In this document: one piece after another, positions 3,343 through 14,027 of the stretch
How positions within the stretch are numbered: the first letter of the stretch is position 1
Layout: each line of letters starts with the position of its first letter
From: a virus
Virus record (IMG/VR): IMGVR_UViG_3300028569_000031
Coordinates: 14,025 to 78,024 of that record
Strand: one strand, 5' to 3'
DNA length: 64,000 nt
Position numbers and translations under genes: made by a program
The notes under the pieces: generated by a model
Told to the model about the DNA's origin: nothing
Seen by the model: only the letters and a program-made list of their open reading frames with translations
Databases searched by the model: none

Positions 3343-4866
3343 ATGGCAGGTACATCCCTTTACTCCGTTTACCGAAGGACCGCACGTGCTGCAGCAAAAC
3401 AACAGATAGTAAAAAAGAGTTCCAATATTGATATTGACCTGGCAAGAAAAGATTTTGCTTATTTTTGCACGGCAGTCGGTGAAAAACCACCGGCAACACA
3501 CCACCTTCTTTGGCACCAGCACTTATGTACTGGAAATAGTTCGGAATGTTTAATCGATATAGCTGGCCCAAATGTAGATATACTAGGTCCCAGAGGTAGT
3601 GCAAAAAGTACAATTTTAGGTTTATTTACAGCGTGGACAATAGGTGTACATGCTTTAAACAAAAAACCGTTAAAAATTCTTTATATTTCTTACACTGTTG
3701 ATGTAGCCAGACCAAAGAGTGCTGCCATTAAAAGAATCATAGAAGAAAGTAAAACATATAAAGAAGTGTTCCCAATGGTAAAAATTGCTAAGGGAATCAA
3801 TAGTAATGAATACTGGAGTATTGATTGGAAGTTTGCTGGCATTAGATCTACCGGTGAAGAAGAATTTACTCTTTGCTGCGCTGGGTTAAAAGGTGCTGTA
3901 ACCTCAAAACGTAGCCATTTATGTATAATAGATGACCCGATTAAGAGCTCTGACGACATTAAGAACAGAGATATCCGAGTAGCAATGGAAGATAACTGGA
4001 ACTCAGTTATTACTCCTACAATGTTTGAAGGTGGACGTGCAATTTGTCTTGGTACTAGATTTCGACATGATGATGTTCACGCCAGTACTTTTACCCCAGG
4101 TAATGATTGGGTTCAAATTGTTCAGTCTGCAATAACGGTAGATGATCAAGGAGAAGAAGTTTCCTATTGGCCAGAAATGTGGTCTCTTGAGTACCTACAA
4201 GACCGTCGTCGTCAGGCTCCTATAAGTTTCAGTTTTCAATATCAAAATCAAATTGTACAAACAAGTGAGCTATCAGTATCTCCAGATTTAATTGTTAAAG
4301 GTCAAATTGCTACTCAGTTTGATGCTTTAGGTATTGGTGTTGATTTATCTGCTGGGGTAAAGGAACGAAATGACTATACTGTTTTTGTTATGGGCGGAAG
4401 GGTTGGCGACAAGATTCATATTATTGATTGCAAACGAATCAGGATTATGGGTAACCTAGAAAAATTAGAAGCGTTAATGGAAATGATGTATGAGTGGGGA
4501 GTTGTTCACAAAGACGGAAAAGATTACCATCCTACTGGTAACACTATTGATGTATGGTCTGAAGCTGTAGCCTATCAAGCATCTTTAGAAGCTGATTTTA
4601 GAAGAATATGTCAAGGTGATCACGGACTGTATAACGTTAATTGGCATCCTGTTAAAGGATTTCGCGGAGACAAAGTAGCGCGTTTCAGGGGAATTATGGG
4701 TTTATTTGAACAACGTAAGCTAATCTTTAACAGGTACCGTAAATTTATGGCTTTAACCGATGAGATCGTAAATTTCGGTGTCAGTTCTCACGATGATTGT
4801 GTTGATGCTTTAATTTGGCTTTGTAATGGTTTAATGACCAGAGGAAAACTAGAGCTAGAGTATTGA
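3343..4866 (+). CDS. terL: terminase large subunit
   Basis: Walker A GPRGSAKST, Walker B LCIIDDP, GTRF coupling motif, nuclease motifs GVDLS and HDDCVDA. Confidence 0.93.
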   Translation: MAGTSLYSVYRRTARAAAKQQIVKKSSNIDIDLARKDFAYFCTAVGEKPPATHHLLWHQHLCTGNSSECLIDIAGPNVDILGPRGSAKSTILGLFTAWTIGVHALNKKPLKILYISYTVDVARPKSAAIKRIIEESKTYKEVFPMVKIAKGINSNEYWSIDWKFAGIRSTGEEEFTLCCAGLKGAVTSKRSHLCIIDDPIKSSDDIKNRDIRVAMEDNWNSVITPTMFEGGRAICLGTRFRHDDVHASTFTPGNDWVQIVQSAITVDDQGEEVSYWPEMWSLEYLQDRRRQAPISFSFQYQNQIVQTSELSVSPDLIVKGQIATQFDALGIGVDLSAGVKERNDYTVFVMGGRVGDKIHIIDCKRIRIMGNLEKLEALMEMMYEWGVVHKDGKDYHPTGNTIDVWSEAVAYQASLEADFRRICQGDHGLYNVNWHPVKGFRGDKVARFRGIMGLFEQRKLIFNRYRKFMALTDEIVNFGVSSHDDCVDALIWLCNGLMTRGKLELEY

Positions 4867-4896
4867 CGCAACTTAAACTTATACAAACACTCAAAA

Positions 4897-5079
4897 ATGT
4901 CTACCGGCTATTACGTCATCGAGCTTGAACAGGATGCTTACGGCTCCGCCCTGCTCCCACTTCCCGACGAACTTTGTCACGACATGTCCCTCACCCCTGG
5001 GGAACAATTTGATGTCGAGGTAGAGGACGATGTGATTACATTCAAAAGATTGCACGCTGGTTACGAAATTGAGGCATAA
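4897..5079 (+). CDS. AbrB/MazE-family DNA-binding protein
   Basis: LPLPDELCHDMSLTPGEQFDVEVEDDVITF fits the swapped-hairpin pattern. Confidence 0.7.
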   Translation: MSTGYYVIELEQDAYGSALLPLPDELCHDMSLTPGEQFDVEVEDDVITFKRLHAGYEIEA

Positions 5080-5103
5080 TAGAGAAACAGGTATTTTTCA
5101 AAA

Positions 5104-7368
5104 ATGAGCGATAGCAAGTCAGCGTTAGATTCTATCCTCAAATCCGTTGTTAATCGAGACGGAGGTGGCTCTGCGGACACCATGTTGGTGAATGCTCACC
5201 TTGCCCAGATGAAAATGTTTGGGATTCGTCAAGGCGTGGAATTTTATCCTGACCAGGATAATTTTGGTACACAGCGATTTGATTTTGTTCAACAAGTAAT
5301 TCGTTTTAATAAACTTGATGCAAGGTTGGATTCCATTTGGGATCGGTTCCTTTCATTTGGAAAAGGCTTATTCTATATAAGGCCTACTAAAAAAACTTAT
5401 CGTTTATATTGGTTTGATAAAGATGCTTACCGTTCATACTACAGCGCCGATGGTGAACTAGAAGAAGTAGTAATTATCTACCCTTATAAAGTAAAGTCGA
5501 ATCGTGGTTTTTCCGGGGTAGGTTTATCAACAGATAAACGTTACATGAGATTAAGAATTACAGCAACTGAAATTGAAGAGTATCATAGCGAACAAGAATT
5601 AAATTTTGAGTCAACATTAGAGTTTGCAACGTTAGGAAAAAAGACAGTTGTAAACACAATGCAATTTATCCCTTGCGTTGAGGTTTTTAATAATCCAGAT
5701 GCTTTTGGTACTGAGGGTAGTGGGGAATTTGAGTGGTTGAGTAATCAAATTATTGCTCACGATGAGATGGTAAAAAATATCAGAGCTAATCTTTCTTTCT
5801 TTGGAAATCCAACTTTACTGTCTTCTCGCCCCAAACAAGACATTATTGAACAAAAAGATGGAGATGTTTCTCAAAGGCCAAGTATTGCAAGCCAATCTGG
5901 TTTCCAATCTGATTTTCCGCTTTCGAGTTCTACTTATCGCCAAGACAATGTAACCAGGCAAAATCCTGGATACATTGGAAAACCTGGCACTGGTATGCGG
6001 GTACCGCGTGTTATTGCAAACCTTGAGCCAACAGATCGTGTTGGTTTTATTACCCCTAATGCAATAAGCACTGACCAAGCAAGATACGCAGAACAGTTGA
6101 GATCTGAGATACGCCTAGCTCTTGGCGGTATTGACGACTTAAGTATTACAAACGTAACTGCTACTGAAATTAAATCAGCTTATGGTCGTGTAAGTGCGAC
6201 AGCTAAGAAAAAATGTTTACAAATTTATACGTATGGAATTTGTAGATGTTTTGAATTAATGATTTTTCAAGAGGAGCAAATATTCAGAAAAACACTTGCT
6301 TTTAGTTCTGGCTTAAAATATCCTGATCCACCTGAAGATTTAGAAGATCCGAAACTTGAAGCAAAGTATGAGAAAGCAAAAGATAAGTATGAACAGGGTT
6401 TACAAGCTGCAATTGATAATGCAATACAAACAAAAACAATACCGCCAGGGGTCTTAGGTCTTGCTCCAGATGGGGATAGAACTGTTTGTTGGCGATGGAT
6501 GGGTCCTGTTTATGAAGACACCGCTCAAGATAAACTTAACCAATCTATCTTTACACGTAACCTACAGGAATTAGGTGTTGATAGCATTGAAGCACTGAAG
6601 TATTTGTTCCCTTCAAAAACGGACGACGAAATCGCAGGCATGCTCTCCGGTTTCCCGTTCCGCATGGTGGGTGAAGTACAGAGGGCGATGTCTACTTTCA
6701 TTGACCTGGTTAACCAGCAAATGAGGACCCCGCATCCGCAGCAGCCGGATATACCGATGGCTGCGGACCCACGTCTTGATCTTACACCGTTCCTTTACCG
6801 AACTCTCGAAAGCCTACAAAAAGAGGTAACCTATGCAGGCCGATACCGCAATGCCGACCCAATCGGCACCCCAAGTATCTCAGACCCAACCGATCAGCTA
6901 CGCGGCTCCAGTTTCTCAAACAGCAGCCTACGCGCCAACGGTTTCAACAACGTCCCAATGGGTGGCGCCTTACCAGCAGGTAACGGCCCCAGCACCGCAA
7001 ATGCAGGCCCAGATGGGCGTCCCCCAGACGCAATACAGCCCTACAGCGTCGTACCCCCAAGCTTACCAGGCGTCCCCACAATCGCCCCAGTCGGAGAATC
7101 CTTACAAGGAGGCATTCAACCGGGTAGTAGGACTCCTGAGTTCGCCGGTCCAATTCCCGTTCCAGGGTCAACAGTCTCAAACGAGCCCTCAGTACGCCCC
7201 GGCCAACTACAGTTCCCAAGCGGCTCCCCAGTACAGCAACGCGGGGACGCAGACCTATACGCCTGGGATCAACAGCAACCAGGGTTACTCCAACGGTTAT
7301 TCCCAAACTTCTCAGGAACTGACCAGGGAGCAGCTCCAAGCAAACGGAGTAAGCGAAGCAAGTCTTAG
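5104..7368 (+). CDS. portal protein with long Pro/Gly-rich C-terminal extension
   Basis: large gene after terL; portal-like IPCVEVFNNPDAFGTEGSGEF segment; last 178 codons overlap the next gene. Confidence 0.75.
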   Translation: MSDSKSALDSILKSVVNRDGGGSADTMLVNAHLAQMKMFGIRQGVEFYPDQDNFGTQRFDFVQQVIRFNKLDARLDSIWDRFLSFGKGLFYIRPTKKTYRLYWFDKDAYRSYYSADGELEEVVIIYPYKVKSNRGFSGVGLSTDKRYMRLRITATEIEEYHSEQELNFESTLEFATLGKKTVVNTMQFIPCVEVFNNPDAFGTEGSGEFEWLSNQIIAHDEMVKNIRANLSFFGNPTLLSSRPKQDIIEQKDGDVSQRPSIASQSGFQSDFPLSSSTYRQDNVTRQNPGYIGKPGTGMRVPRVIANLEPTDRVGFITPNAISTDQARYAEQLRSEIRLALGGIDDLSITNVTATEIKSAYGRVSATAKKKCLQIYTYGICRCFELMIFQEEQIFRKTLAFSSGLKYPDPPEDLEDPKLEAKYEKAKDKYEQGLQAAIDNAIQTKTIPPGVLGLAPDGDRTVCWRWMGPVYEDTAQDKLNQSIFTRNLQELGVDSIEALKYLFPSKTDDEIAGMLSGFPFRMVGEVQRAMSTFIDLVNQQMRTPHPQQPDIPMAADPRLDLTPFLYRTLESLQKEVTYAGRYRNADPIGTPSISDPTDQLRGSSFSNSSLRANGFNNVPMGGALPAGNGPSTANAGPDGRPPDAIQPYSVVPPSLPGVPTIAPVGESLQGGIQPGSRTPEFAGPIPVPGSTVSNEPSVRPGQLQFPSGSPVQQRGDADLYAWDQQQPGLLQRLFPNFSGTDQGAAPSKRSKRSKS

Positions 7369-7840
7369 TGTAATTGATCATTTTGGTGCTGATTGTCCAG
7401 CAATTCTTAATGATTATTCTTGCAAAATTGAAGACGCTCTTATTGTTACCAATAACCAGTTAATTCACGCAGTTAATCTACTGAAAGAATTATCCGCTGA
7501 GCATAAAGCTTACGAGACAATTCTTACAGATCCTGATGTACTTGCTGATTATACTTGCGAGTTCTTCGGTGAAAACGGTCCTTACCCTGTTCCCGATGAA
7601 TCAGTTTCTTACAGCAGGCCTGTAGGTCAACAGTTTGTTAATCCAACTGTTGCTCCTCAGTATCAGCGTCCTGACATGCCAGTTCCTCCTCAGCCTCAGC
7701 AAACACAAGGCAATCCAGCGGATTTCTGGAATAGTTTTGGTTCGTTGGCTGACCGTGATCCCGCTAATGCATGGCGCTATTTGAATGCAGCACAACAAAA
7801 TCCTGATGTATTCCGCCAGAAACTCCTGGTAATGGAATGA
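6833..7840 (+). CDS. putative capsid scaffolding protein
   Basis: own SD GAGGT 5 nt before ATG; Q/P/Y-rich N-half, helical core; lies between portal and capsid; followed by a terminator. Confidence 0.7.
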   Translation: MQADTAMPTQSAPQVSQTQPISYAAPVSQTAAYAPTVSTTSQWVAPYQQVTAPAPQMQAQMGVPQTQYSPTASYPQAYQASPQSPQSENPYKEAFNRVVGLLSSPVQFPFQGQQSQTSPQYAPANYSSQAAPQYSNAGTQTYTPGINSNQGYSNGYSQTSQELTREQLQANGVSEASLSVIDHFGADCPAILNDYSCKIEDALIVTNNQLIHAVNLLKELSAEHKAYETILTDPDVLADYTCEFFGENGPYPVPDESVSYSRPVGQQFVNPTVAPQYQRPDMPVPPQPQQTQGNPADFWNSFGSLADRDPANAWRYLNAAQQNPDVFRQKLLVME

Positions 7841-7871
7841 TCATTAGTTTGATCTATTAAGTTTAGAATAT

Positions 7872-7897
7872 GGGGTAGTAAATGCTACCCCTTTTTT
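7872..7897 (+). terminator. rho-independent terminator
   Basis: GGGGTAG..CTACCCC hairpin followed by T6. Confidence 0.85.
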
Positions 7898-7917
7898 ATT
7901 AAATATAGAGGCATAAA

Positions 7918-8418
7918 ATGTTTAATGTGCCACCGAACGTACAATCCGCTGTTACCAGTGCTGGAGAAGCAGTTAAAAGCGGCGTTCAAGCAACAGAAAA
8001 AGTAGGAAAACGTGCAGCTAATTTTATTGCTGCAATTGGAACAAGTGGTGGTCCTGTTGGATCCGCTGCGTTAATTGGATTTGGAGCTGGTGCGGTTACC
8101 GGTGCATTAACATCAGCTTACCAACGTGAGCAAGGATTACATCGAATGGCTGGGGAAGCAATTAAAATTGGCAGCCCTCACTCACAGAGTGCAGTAATGC
8201 CAACGGATCTACAAGCCGGATATTTAAATTTAAATACTTTTGGATCGCCCCTACCAACACATGGATTAATGGGTGCTCATAATTTACGTGCCTCACAAAT
8301 AATTCAAGATCAAGCAACTGCATCTGAGCAGCAATATATGTCAGCATATATGCCGCAAACAGGTCAACTTCCTTTTGGGGAACTAACCCAACAACCACAA
8401 CAAAAAGGTCGCCGCTAA
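7918..8418 (+). CDS. hypothetical virion-associated protein
   Basis: ORF with SD in head cluster; hydrophobic Gly segment and RMAGE motif. Confidence 0.55.
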   Translation: MFNVPPNVQSAVTSAGEAVKSGVQATEKVGKRAANFIAAIGTSGGPVGSAALIGFGAGAVTGALTSAYQREQGLHRMAGEAIKIGSPHSQSAVMPTDLQAGYLNLNTFGSPLPTHGLMGAHNLRASQIIQDQATASEQQYMSAYMPQTGQLPFGELTQQPQQKGRR

Positions 8419-8717
8419 TGGACCACAACAAAGCCAAGAAAGCTAAAACAAAAGCTAAGTCACACAACACACAGAAAAAATCTTCCCCAGAACAAGTTGC
8501 CCAGCAACAAGCCGCCACAGCGCAGATGATGGCAATGTCTCAGCAACAGGGCCAGGGTTTTATTAATCCGGAAGTGCAAGCACAGCAAATTTCTTTACAA
8601 CCGCCAACAACTAATCCTTATCACATGATGGGTGCAATGGCGCCTACATCTTACCGTTACGGAAACATGGTAGATGGTTACGCTGGAGTTGATCCGCAAT
8701 TTCGCCCAATGGGTTAA
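8418..8717 (+). CDS. hypothetical protein (basic N-terminus, Q/M-rich)
   Basis: start overlaps previous stop (TAATG). Confidence 0.55.
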   Translation: MDHNKAKKAKTKAKSHNTQKKSSPEQVAQQQAATAQMMAMSQQQGQGFINPEVQAQQISLQPPTTNPYHMMGAMAPTSYRYGNMVDGYAGVDPQFRPMG

Positions 8718-8828: not shown

Positions 8829-9971
8829 ATGTTTATCGATAACGACTTTCCCAAGCTGTTGGGCGCGGAGCTGTACCGCCCCCACCCAGCGTATATCGTG
8901 GAGATGGCGGCTGAGCCCGTTGTGGTCCATGACTTCACAAAACAGCCAGGACAGACTGTGCAGCTGGACCGTTATCGTTTCTGGGGTAACCCTGGAACAA
9001 AGACCAGCCGCGAGCGTACCCAAGATCAAACTATCGGTACAGCTAGCAGCCGTGCAATCGTAAAAGACAAGGTTCTTGTTTCTTTGCGTGAGTACACTGG
9101 TCCTGCCGACCCTAACAATACAAACCTTCCCAGCACCTTCAAGATTGCTAGGGAAACCCTGATGACCGCTCAGCGTCTTCTTTTGGACTCCGGGAACCTT
9201 AATATGTTCCACCAGTCCATTGGTTCGTTGACACTTCTGGATGATTATCGTCGTTGGAGGGACCGCGTGTTCCTTGACGAGATGGCGAAATCAGAATCCC
9301 GTGGCGCATCTGGCGACTCACAGGGCGGTTACTACTACCCCAACGGTAAGGCCAAGTCTTCTTCTACCGTACTTAGCTCTTATAGTGCTACCGAGTACGC
9401 TTCTGAGCGTTACAAGTTTAACGTAAAGACCGACCTTCTAGAGGTTGTTCGTCAATTGCGTAAGCGTAACGTTCCTGTATTCCAAGACGGTTACTATCGT
9501 TGTATTGCTGACCCTTCTTTCATGAAGGATCTGCGTGCTGATCAAGGCTTCCGTGAAATCGCCCGTTACCCAGGTATGGGTCAAGGCAACCCTCTCATGG
9601 GTGCTGCTGGTCCTAACCAGGCAATTTATGGTGGTGGTCAATACGGCCAAGCAATGTTTGTTGCTGGTGAGCCCGTGATGCCTACCGGATTTGTATTTGA
9701 AGGAGTACGCTTCTTCGAGTCAACCAACTTTGCTGAAAAATCCATCACTTGTGATATTGGCGATGGTAGCGGTGCCATTACCCACACCACTCCTCCAGGC
9801 CTATTCTTTGGTCCTCAGGCAGTAGGCGTTGGTATCGGTGGCCCTAACGCCCAGGTTCTTATTAACAACAACGATGACTTTAGCCGTTTCATTATCTTGA
9901 TCTGGCAACTGTACGCTGGTTTTGCTAATTTGAACAAGGACTTTATCACCTCTGCTTTCACCATTATTTGA
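8829..9971 (+). CDS. major capsid protein
   Basis: 380 aa, HK97-like pattern (DFTKQPGQTVQLDRY, FEGVRFFES, LIWQLYAGF); C-ending codon bias; TATAAT upstream. Confidence 0.85.
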   Translation: MFIDNDFPKLLGAELYRPHPAYIVEMAAEPVVVHDFTKQPGQTVQLDRYRFWGNPGTKTSRERTQDQTIGTASSRAIVKDKVLVSLREYTGPADPNNTNLPSTFKIARETLMTAQRLLLDSGNLNMFHQSIGSLTLLDDYRRWRDRVFLDEMAKSESRGASGDSQGGYYYPNGKAKSSSTVLSSYSATEYASERYKFNVKTDLLEVVRQLRKRNVPVFQDGYYRCIADPSFMKDLRADQGFREIARYPGMGQGNPLMGAAGPNQAIYGGGQYGQAMFVAGEPVMPTGFVFEGVRFFESTNFAEKSITCDIGDGSGAITHTTPPGLFFGPQAVGVGIGGPNAQVLINNNDDFSRFIILIWQLYAGFANLNKDFITSAFTII

Positions 9972-13695: not shown

Positions 13696-14027
13696 GTATA
13701 CATGGACAACGAACAGTAAGAAAAAAACTCGCCGACCATGCTGAGGATAGGAGAAGACGACCAGATGAGAGACCAGCAAATAGACCTCAAGCAGACCTTG
13801 GCTATACTCTCGGTGTACGTCAAGACTCTTTACCTTTTGACGAACCATTAAAAACCAACGCTGAAAAATTTGTCTCTCCTCAACGAACTGATCAAAAAAA
13901 ACAACGAATGGCCGGTGATGTATTAGGCGCTTTAAACTATGATATAAAACAAGGTACCGGACTACCGTCTGCATTTAAACAATTGCAAGTCGGCAGTTCT
14001 GAACTCCGTAACCCCGAAATTTCTTAG
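13692..14027 (+). CDS. hypothetical basic protein
   Basis: ATGA overlap with previous gene; contains RMAGD. Confidence 0.55.
   Translation: MSIHGQRTVRKKLADHAEDRRRRPDERPANRPQADLGYTLGVRQDSLPFDEPLKTNAEKFVSPQRTDQKKQRMAGDVLGALNYDIKQGTGLPSAFKQLQVGSSELRNPEIS

Follow-up and report, generated by a model that had tools for sequence, protein, structure and literature searches.

The stretch analysed here, hereafter the window, comprises 64,000 nucleotides (nt) of the IMG/VR virus record IMGVR_UViG_3300028569_000031 (positions 14,025 to 78,024) and derives from a freshwater cyanophage. This phage is related to Synechococcus phage S-EIV1, whose portal is 53% identical (tblastn) and which was the sole match among 50,697 phage records. 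We focused on a segment of the head module in which the 3' end of a portal gene and the 5' end of a scaffold-like gene share 536 nt in different frames. The geometry given in a preliminary description of this DNA, namely an open reading frame (ORF) at 5104-7368 and a +1 ORF at 6833 led by a Shine-Dalgarno (SD) sequence, was confirmed, and both ORFs are present as follows.

5104..7368, + strand: portal gene, 754 amino acids (aa), ending ...PSKRSKRSKS; residues 1-578 form the folded core, and the extension (residues 577-754) corresponds to the overlap
6833..7840, + strand: scaffold-like head gene, 335 aa, in the +1 frame of the portal gene; its first 178 codons lie in the overlap
6833..7368, + strand: dual-coding segment, 536 nt (OLGenie frame ss13, with the portal as reference)

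The internal ATG at 6833 stands 6 nt past an SD-like GAGG (6823-6826) and one codon past a TAA in the +1 frame (6827-6829), and the scaffold-like protein begins MQADTAMPTQ. The composition of the shared segment differs from that of its surroundings: GC content is 0.54-0.62 across the overlap versus about 0.31-0.46 for most flanking genes, and the frequency of T at the third position of scaffold codons is 0.08-0.16 in the bins starting at 6833, 6983 and 7133 versus 0.37-0.48 in those from 7283 on. The GC-richness of the overlap and the avoidance of T-ending scaffold codons, followed by their return, had been noticed before, as had the basic tail PSKRSKRSKS, which indeed closes the 754-aa ORF, and the low complexity of both products in this region. 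The portal tail is P/G/S-rich and the scaffold N-terminus Q/P/S/Y-rich, and both are predicted to be disordered. The picture of a GC-rich overlap needs one correction, however: GC and portal third-position GC (GC3) climb from near 6600, about 230 nt ahead of the overlap, with portal GC3 stepping from about 0.25 to 0.66 at about that position.

Along its entire length the 754-aa protein matched phrog_20475 ("virion structural protein"; E 1e-209); it had no match in Pfam and gave a weak match in a PDB profile search (E 0.27). An AlphaFold2 (AF2) model was built from 47 aligned members of the portal family, namely the window's own portal and 46 database relatives, which share 26-89% identity with it. 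This model (predicted local distance difference test, pLDDT, 72.8) is confident over residues 1-578, disordered over 579-675, confident again over 676-694 (a pLDDT block of about 80) and of low confidence from there to the end. In a Foldseek comparison with the PDB the top matches were all portal proteins (LME-1, SaPI1/80alpha and T7; E about 1e-10, best 4e-10), and essentially all the matches listed were portal chains or portal-containing complexes. Since portal proteins are the top matches throughout, we identify the 754-aa protein as the portal, the label it had been given from the letters alone, and the neighbouring terminase gene agrees with this. The two flanking head genes that matter here are the following.

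3343-4866: large terminase TerL, adjoining the portal gene within the head module
8829-9971: major capsid gene

The 335-aa protein had no match in Pfam, PHROG, the PDB-profile search or Atlas, and a BFVD fold search with its low-confidence model returned only the truncated S-EIV1 ORF, which is uninformative. Its 803 database homologues, of about 330-345 aa, are all "hypothetical" and carry no Pfam domains. In the AF2 model, whose mean pLDDT is only 50.6, residues 1-161 are disordered apart from a helix at 90-102, and long helices (165-245) are followed by a helical hairpin (296-328). Because its gene lies between the portal and major capsid genes, together with two small ORFs, and given this predicted architecture, the protein is most likely of the scaffolding or core type. 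The term "scaffold" used in the preliminary description therefore fits in position and architecture, but homology to any known scaffold family was not found. Three conserved elements of the two products lie within the overlap.

7100..7138, + strand: conserved helix of the scaffold-like protein, residues 90-102, NPYKEAFNRVVGLL (from AF2 and alignment)
7129..7185, + strand: conserved portal-tail motif PIPVPGST, residues about 676-694, the sole confident element of the extension
7172..7365, + strand: distal portal tail, DADLYAWDQQQPGLLQRLFPNF ... KRSKRSKS, with a portal-frame coding pattern

The first of these reads NPW..AF..L in distant clades, P.PGST is kept across the 47-sequence portal-family alignment, and the LFP[TN]F motif and basic end of the distal tail are family-wide.

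The same arrangement is present in the relatives. In S-EIV1 (L001, KJ410740.1) the portal gene (3992-6295) shares 554 nt with a +1 ORF of 325 codons (5742-6719), of which GenBank lists only a 133-aa ORF (6318-6719), that is, the last 133 codons, past the portal stop; this is probably an under-annotation caused by the overlap rules of gene calling. The close set (clade 1) consisted of 80 IMG/VR relatives at least 80% identical, or 81 loci with S-EIV1. Each of the 80 IMG/VR relatives has both frames open, and the overlaps, 515-563 nt long, are without exception 2 mod 3. Over the 81 loci there is no internal stop in either coding frame, the third forward frame has a mean of 4.6, and the three antisense frames have means of 10.2, 5.4 and 1.8. 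A second set of 80 loci (clade 2), found with a profile of distant portals, behaved likewise: the +1 ORF overlaps the portal by 458-584 nt in essentially every complete locus, and the 57 distinct overlaps contain no stops in the two frames and 3.9 in the third. In 14 loci from farther lineages (L163-L173 and L085-L087) the +1 ORF always runs over the portal stop, by 65-542 nt, and its product begins, as here, with a Q/P-rich part, followed by a short helix motif, a coiled-coil region and a hairpin at the C-terminus. As the overlap varies from 65 to 542 nt and the downstream architecture is constant, the portal stop has been mobile in evolution when set against an internal start that is fairly fixed.

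The portal extension was traced further with a search using the portal core only, run against 1.8 billion cluster representatives, which gave 294 relatives, most of the full-length ones being 690-840 aa. Past the motif E-L-x-Y-G their extensions continue for 105-272 aa, with a sequence resembling LFP[TN]F and a basic terminus; at 30-60% core identity most representatives still have the tail motifs and this terminus. The portal homologues found number more than 1700, and single-protein scans with P0184, a short-extension representative, and P0131 as queries gave no matches. A quick tree with a midpoint root places long extensions on both sides and the few short ones nested within long-extension clades. 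Since long overlaps and extensions are kept across lineages, relatives do not stop the portal near 6840, an outcome that would have counted against the preliminary description; the portal extension frame and the +1 ORF are both present in every lineage sampled, and both frames are open in all relatives examined.

The internal start is conserved at the nucleotide level too. The ATG and its context are kept in 146 loci, the consensus ...GA..T.AC.TATGCAGGAC around it holds over 47 distinct contexts, and in most loci the first ATG comes one codon past an upstream stop in the +1 frame. The corresponding block in the window is the following.

6790..6880, + strand: nucleotide-invariant block at the internal start, containing GAGG (6823-6826), TAA (6827-6829) and ATG (6833)

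In clade 1 the portal synonymous sites are frozen throughout this block, which from its sequence we take to be the translation-initiation region of the internal gene. This bears on an alternative explanation, in which the +1 ORF before 7368 would be compositional, and the real gene would start past the portal stop, leaving the N-terminal 178 codons untranslated. The short ORF listed in GenBank for S-EIV1 agrees with such a start. The window, however, has no in-frame Met near 7369, the Met used in S-EIV1 is not conserved, and the upstream ATG is preserved in its context across the 146 loci, with the frozen portal sites lying around the SD and ATG; the helix motif NPW..AF..L, encoded before the portal stop, is kept in distant clades as well.

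The conserved ATG also counts against frameshifting as the link between the frames. The frame geometry would permit either a +1 portal-scaffold fusion, which the preliminary description had allowed for, or a -1 scaffold product with a basic tail, beside or instead of an independent start, and the conserved distal tail (7172-7365) would then belong to two products. No X_XXY_YYZ heptamer exists in the scaffold frame anywhere in the overlap, though, and the lone portal-frame heptamer (7302) would lead into the third frame, which has stops in the overlap. No pause site, stop or rare codon was seen to be conserved in the alignments, and the +1 ORF carries an SD and an ATG of its own. With no slippery site between the two frames, the fusion gained no ground, and we regard frameshifting of either kind as very unlikely.

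Open frames of this length could in principle follow from composition, and we compared them with two nulls, permuting codons or recoding a protein. When the window's scaffold codons were permuted the portal frame stayed open in 1.4% of trials, and when the scaffold protein was recoded with the phage's own codon usage it was open in 0/20000, with a mean of 10 stops. Permuting the portal codons left the scaffold frame open in 0/20000. Six other diverged lineages gave similar values: the portal frame was stop-free in 0.7-5% of trials with permuted scaffold codons and in up to 0.2% with the scaffold protein recoded, and the scaffold frame in up to 0.08% with permuted portal codons and in 0.2-10% with the portal tail recoded. 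The open frames in the overlap are not explained by chance, and shuffling does not predict the open portal frame, here or in the six other lineages.

The pattern of substitutions was then compared between the shared and unshared parts of the genes. In clade 1 (70 distinct sequences), nucleotide diversity (pi), given for codon positions 1/2/3, amounts to 0.12/0.06/0.51 where only the portal is encoded and to 0.14-0.17/0.07-0.12/0.45-0.49 where only the scaffold is, versus 0.22/0.10/0.20, in portal phase, in the overlap, where no position acts as a free wobble. Directly past 7368 the scaffold third-position pi is back at 0.43-0.52. Clade 2 shows the same change at the two ends of its overlap, with portal third-position pi dropping from 0.52-0.58 to 0.27 and that of the scaffold recovering from 0.30 to 0.61.

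Selection on each frame was estimated with an OLGenie-style estimator that we implemented after PMC7531306, giving a portal ratio wP (dNN/dSN) and a scaffold ratio wS (dNN/dNS). In the clade 1 overlap wP is 0.41 [0.31-0.53] versus 1.24 for the in-locus control, and wS is 0.30 [0.23-0.38] versus 0.75-0.83 for its controls. The clade 2 ratios are 0.66 versus 1.58 (portal) and 0.60 versus 0.82-0.91 (scaffold). Sliding windows over clade 1 resolve the overlap into distinct parts: all of 6790-6890 is frozen; 6893-6982 and 7076-7171 follow with the coding pattern of the scaffold frame (pi 0.03-0.10, 0.02-0.09 and 0.20-0.39; wS 0.05-0.21); and a portal-frame pattern occupies 7172-7321, where portal pi is higher at position 3 than at 1 and 2 and scaffold pi at position 2 is high. 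The scaffold frame is constrained along the whole overlap, most strongly at 7076-7171 (wS 0.05), and wP falls to 0.29 [0.18-0.44] in the last 194 nt (7172-7365). Purifying selection is seen in both frames, whose ratios are below their in-locus controls in two clades, and synonymous suppression is bounded by the overlap, save for its upstream start in clade 1.

Several of our results weigh against dual coding of the segment, besides the lack of database and informative fold matches for the 335-aa protein. When the window's portal tail was recoded, the scaffold frame was open in 12% of trials. The portal ratio reaches significance over the overlap as a whole and, among its segments, in the last 194 nt alone, and since the intervals within 6833-7171 include 1, the first ~110 residues of the extension may be mere spacer. 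The +1-frame ratio is 0.33 [0.15-0.65] in 6538-6828 as well, and as no +1 ORF exists there, the estimator for this frame is biased low. In clade 1, moreover, synonymous suppression sets in near 6540, some 300 nt ahead of the ATG, so that some of the constraint must be non-coding (promoter, leader or RNA structure).

The first and third of these points would favour an untranslated N-terminus, the P/G-rich portal tail depressing stops in the +1 frame and the biased estimator exaggerating the constraint on it. They are set against the scaffold-phase coding pattern at 6893-6982 and 7076-7171, in addition to the conserved start, and we consider it highly improbable that the gene begins past 7368. 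The second point bears on another explanation, in which the scaffold-like frame alone is constrained and the portal tail to 7368 is a tolerated, largely neutral appendage, present for want of a stop. Its predicted disorder and the few representatives with short extensions (20-85 aa) are in keeping with this. Yet the portal frame is stop-free in all of about 150 loci, when recoding the scaffold protein produces 5-13 stops, and keeping it open therefore needs sustained avoidance of T at scaffold third positions. The low wP of the distal tail, far from the non-coding control, the persistence of PxPGST, LFP[TN]F and the basic end at 30-40% identity, and the nesting of the short extensions within long-extension clades also argue for a selected tail. 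A neutral tail is in our view improbable, if less so than the two explanations above.

We consider it highly probable, judging from conservation and substitution patterns, that the 536 nt are read in two frames for parts of two head-assembly proteins that are independently translated. The genuine dual coding proposed in the preliminary description is thereby upheld: both frames are conserved open, are under purifying selection relative to their in-locus controls and exceed the shuffling nulls.

The suppression that precedes the ATG draws attention to a second conserved block, and a possible transcript end lies past the scaffold-like gene.

6562..6612, + strand: ultra-conserved block inside the portal gene, 220-270 nt 5' of the internal ATG; candidate internal promoter or cis element
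7872..7901, + strand: terminator-like hairpin (7872-7891, 8 pairs) followed by TTTTTT, past the scaffold-like gene and before the ORF at 7918

In the upstream block synonymous change is almost nil, even in S-EIV1 (58% nucleotide identity overall), and it contains TTGATA-N17-TATTTG at 6578-6606. No alternative ORF in 6540-6832 accounts for the suppression, and the region may serve the scaffold-like gene as an internal promoter or leader. A promoter is disfavoured by a sigma-70 consensus scan, which called none in 6540-6830, and the -10-like hexamer of the 6578-6606 element is changed in S-EIV1. The conserved 23-mer at 6578-6600 has no second copy in the window, and Rfam gave nothing relevant in 6300-7900.

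Contigs from RNA libraries correspond to 6620-7849 (X17), to 6606-7086 plus 7069-7805 (X18) and to 6333-7538 plus 7571-7906 (X16). X17 and X18 also cover the capsid gene, but nothing of the 5' 1.1-1.5 kb of the portal gene; they carry two study codes, yet come from the same year, habitat and library type. As assembled contigs, they do not show true 5' ends, may include DNA carry-over, and have gaps that are no sign of absence, which tempers the support that they lend. They give a weak hint of an internal transcript beginning at about 6606-6620, just past the ultra-conserved block, and ending at the 7872 hairpin.

Taken together, the dual-coding reading would work as follows. Frame 1 would take the portal past its folded core into a mostly disordered, P/G/S-rich extension of roughly 178 residues, with short conserved motifs (PIPVPGST and ADL...LFPNF) and then a Lys/Arg-rich end. 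The +1 frame would initiate on its own at the conserved ATG behind the SD-like GAGG, and would encode the disordered, Q/P/S/Y-rich N-terminal half, with its single helix, of the 335-aa helical protein. Selection is partitioned, acting on the scaffold frame over about 6893-7171 and on the portal frame over about 7172-7321, with both constrained in 7172-7365. For this reason the conserved elements of the two proteins interdigitate, those of one falling where the other is disordered and tolerant of change. If the internal transcript exists and is the more abundant, its start near 6606-6620 would place the scaffold-like protein in excess over the 12-copy portal. The basic portal tail would lie inside the capsid, touching DNA or the core.

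A stronger version, in which the overlap is functional as a unit, we think unlikely, if somewhat less so than a neutral tail. Here the internal promoter or leader (6562-6832), together with portal-frame ribosomes crossing the scaffold start, would set the portal-to-scaffold ratio, and the interdigitated motifs would bind each other, recruiting the portal to the nascent procapsid. If true, this would be an Rz/Rz1-like case, with two interacting segments encoded on one DNA.

Other ORFs were seen in and around the locus.

6944..7381, - strand: antisense ORF of 145 codons, open in the window
7918-8717: two small ORFs between the scaffold-like and capsid genes

The 145-codon antisense ORF was rejected as a gene, being stop-free in just 9 of the 81 close loci and broken in S-EIV1, and is a by-product of composition. 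A 58-codon antisense ORF (6525-6701, - strand), whose peptide looks conserved in S-EIV1, has its wobble positions in common with the portal frame, in a part of the portal that is strongly conserved. Its frame has a mean of 2.6 stops and is free of them in 1 of the 81 loci, and the ORF is in all likelihood a mirror effect. As for the two small ORFs, the first (166 aa) is Gly/Ala-rich with an RMAGE motif, and the second (99 aa) has a basic N-terminus and is otherwise Gln-rich. Neither had a family match, and either could be a scaffold or core component too.

Overlapping genes are treated in general terms in PMC8227390 and PMC2992710. In the literature searched, neither this portal/scaffold overlap nor a similar one in cyanophages is reported, and the reference genome is annotated without it, for which reasons we count it as new. 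It is an unusually long new example of a known phenomenon, involving core structural genes in a large lineage of double-stranded DNA (dsDNA) phages, and no new kind of system. Across the whole S-EIV1-like lineage, which comprises phages of freshwater and other aquatic habitats, this half kilobase has been kept. For the reference isolate the result amends the record, which gives 133 codons for an ORF of 325, and it implies that gene callers that bar long overlaps will cut one gene short in hundreds of metagenomic contigs. It also offers a natural, sequence-diverse system for studying two disordered segments encoded on one DNA, and portal-to-scaffold stoichiometry.

phiX174, lambda Rz/Rz1 and many RNA viruses are well-known examples of out-of-frame overprinting. 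While long overlaps of this kind are textbook material for tiny single-stranded DNA (ssDNA) and RNA viruses, in tailed dsDNA phages they are seldom seen and mostly go unannotated. The nearest parallel is lambda Rz/Rz1, likewise a same-strand, out-of-frame overlap in a tailed dsDNA phage that joins the members of one functional module, with one proline-rich, low-complexity product. Rz1, however, is fully embedded in the +1 frame of Rz over about 180 nt and serves lysis, whereas the overlap described here is terminal (3' end over 5' end), three times longer and part of a head-assembly module. In phiX174 (B within A, E within D, and K) shifted-frame dual coding also involves scaffolding genes, purifying selection is split between the frames and the overprinted parts are disordered. 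That phage is a 5.4-kb ssDNA microvirus under extreme size constraint, while the present dsDNA phage has a genome of about 78 kb, and nearly all its other genes abut with no more than trivial overlap.

Two further comparisons concern head assembly itself. In lambda C/Nu3 and in the herpesvirus protease/scaffold, head-assembly proteins share DNA and an internal start yields the more abundant scaffold, but the products have a common frame and C-terminus; the two proteins described here are in different frames and have no residue in common. The barrel of P22 gp1, finally, resembles the portal extension in running for about 180 residues past the crown, in being expected to point into the capsid and in its charged end. 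It is, however, a helical coiled coil encoded on unshared DNA, whereas the extension described here is predicted to be disordered, is P/G-rich and is encoded on DNA shared with a second head protein.

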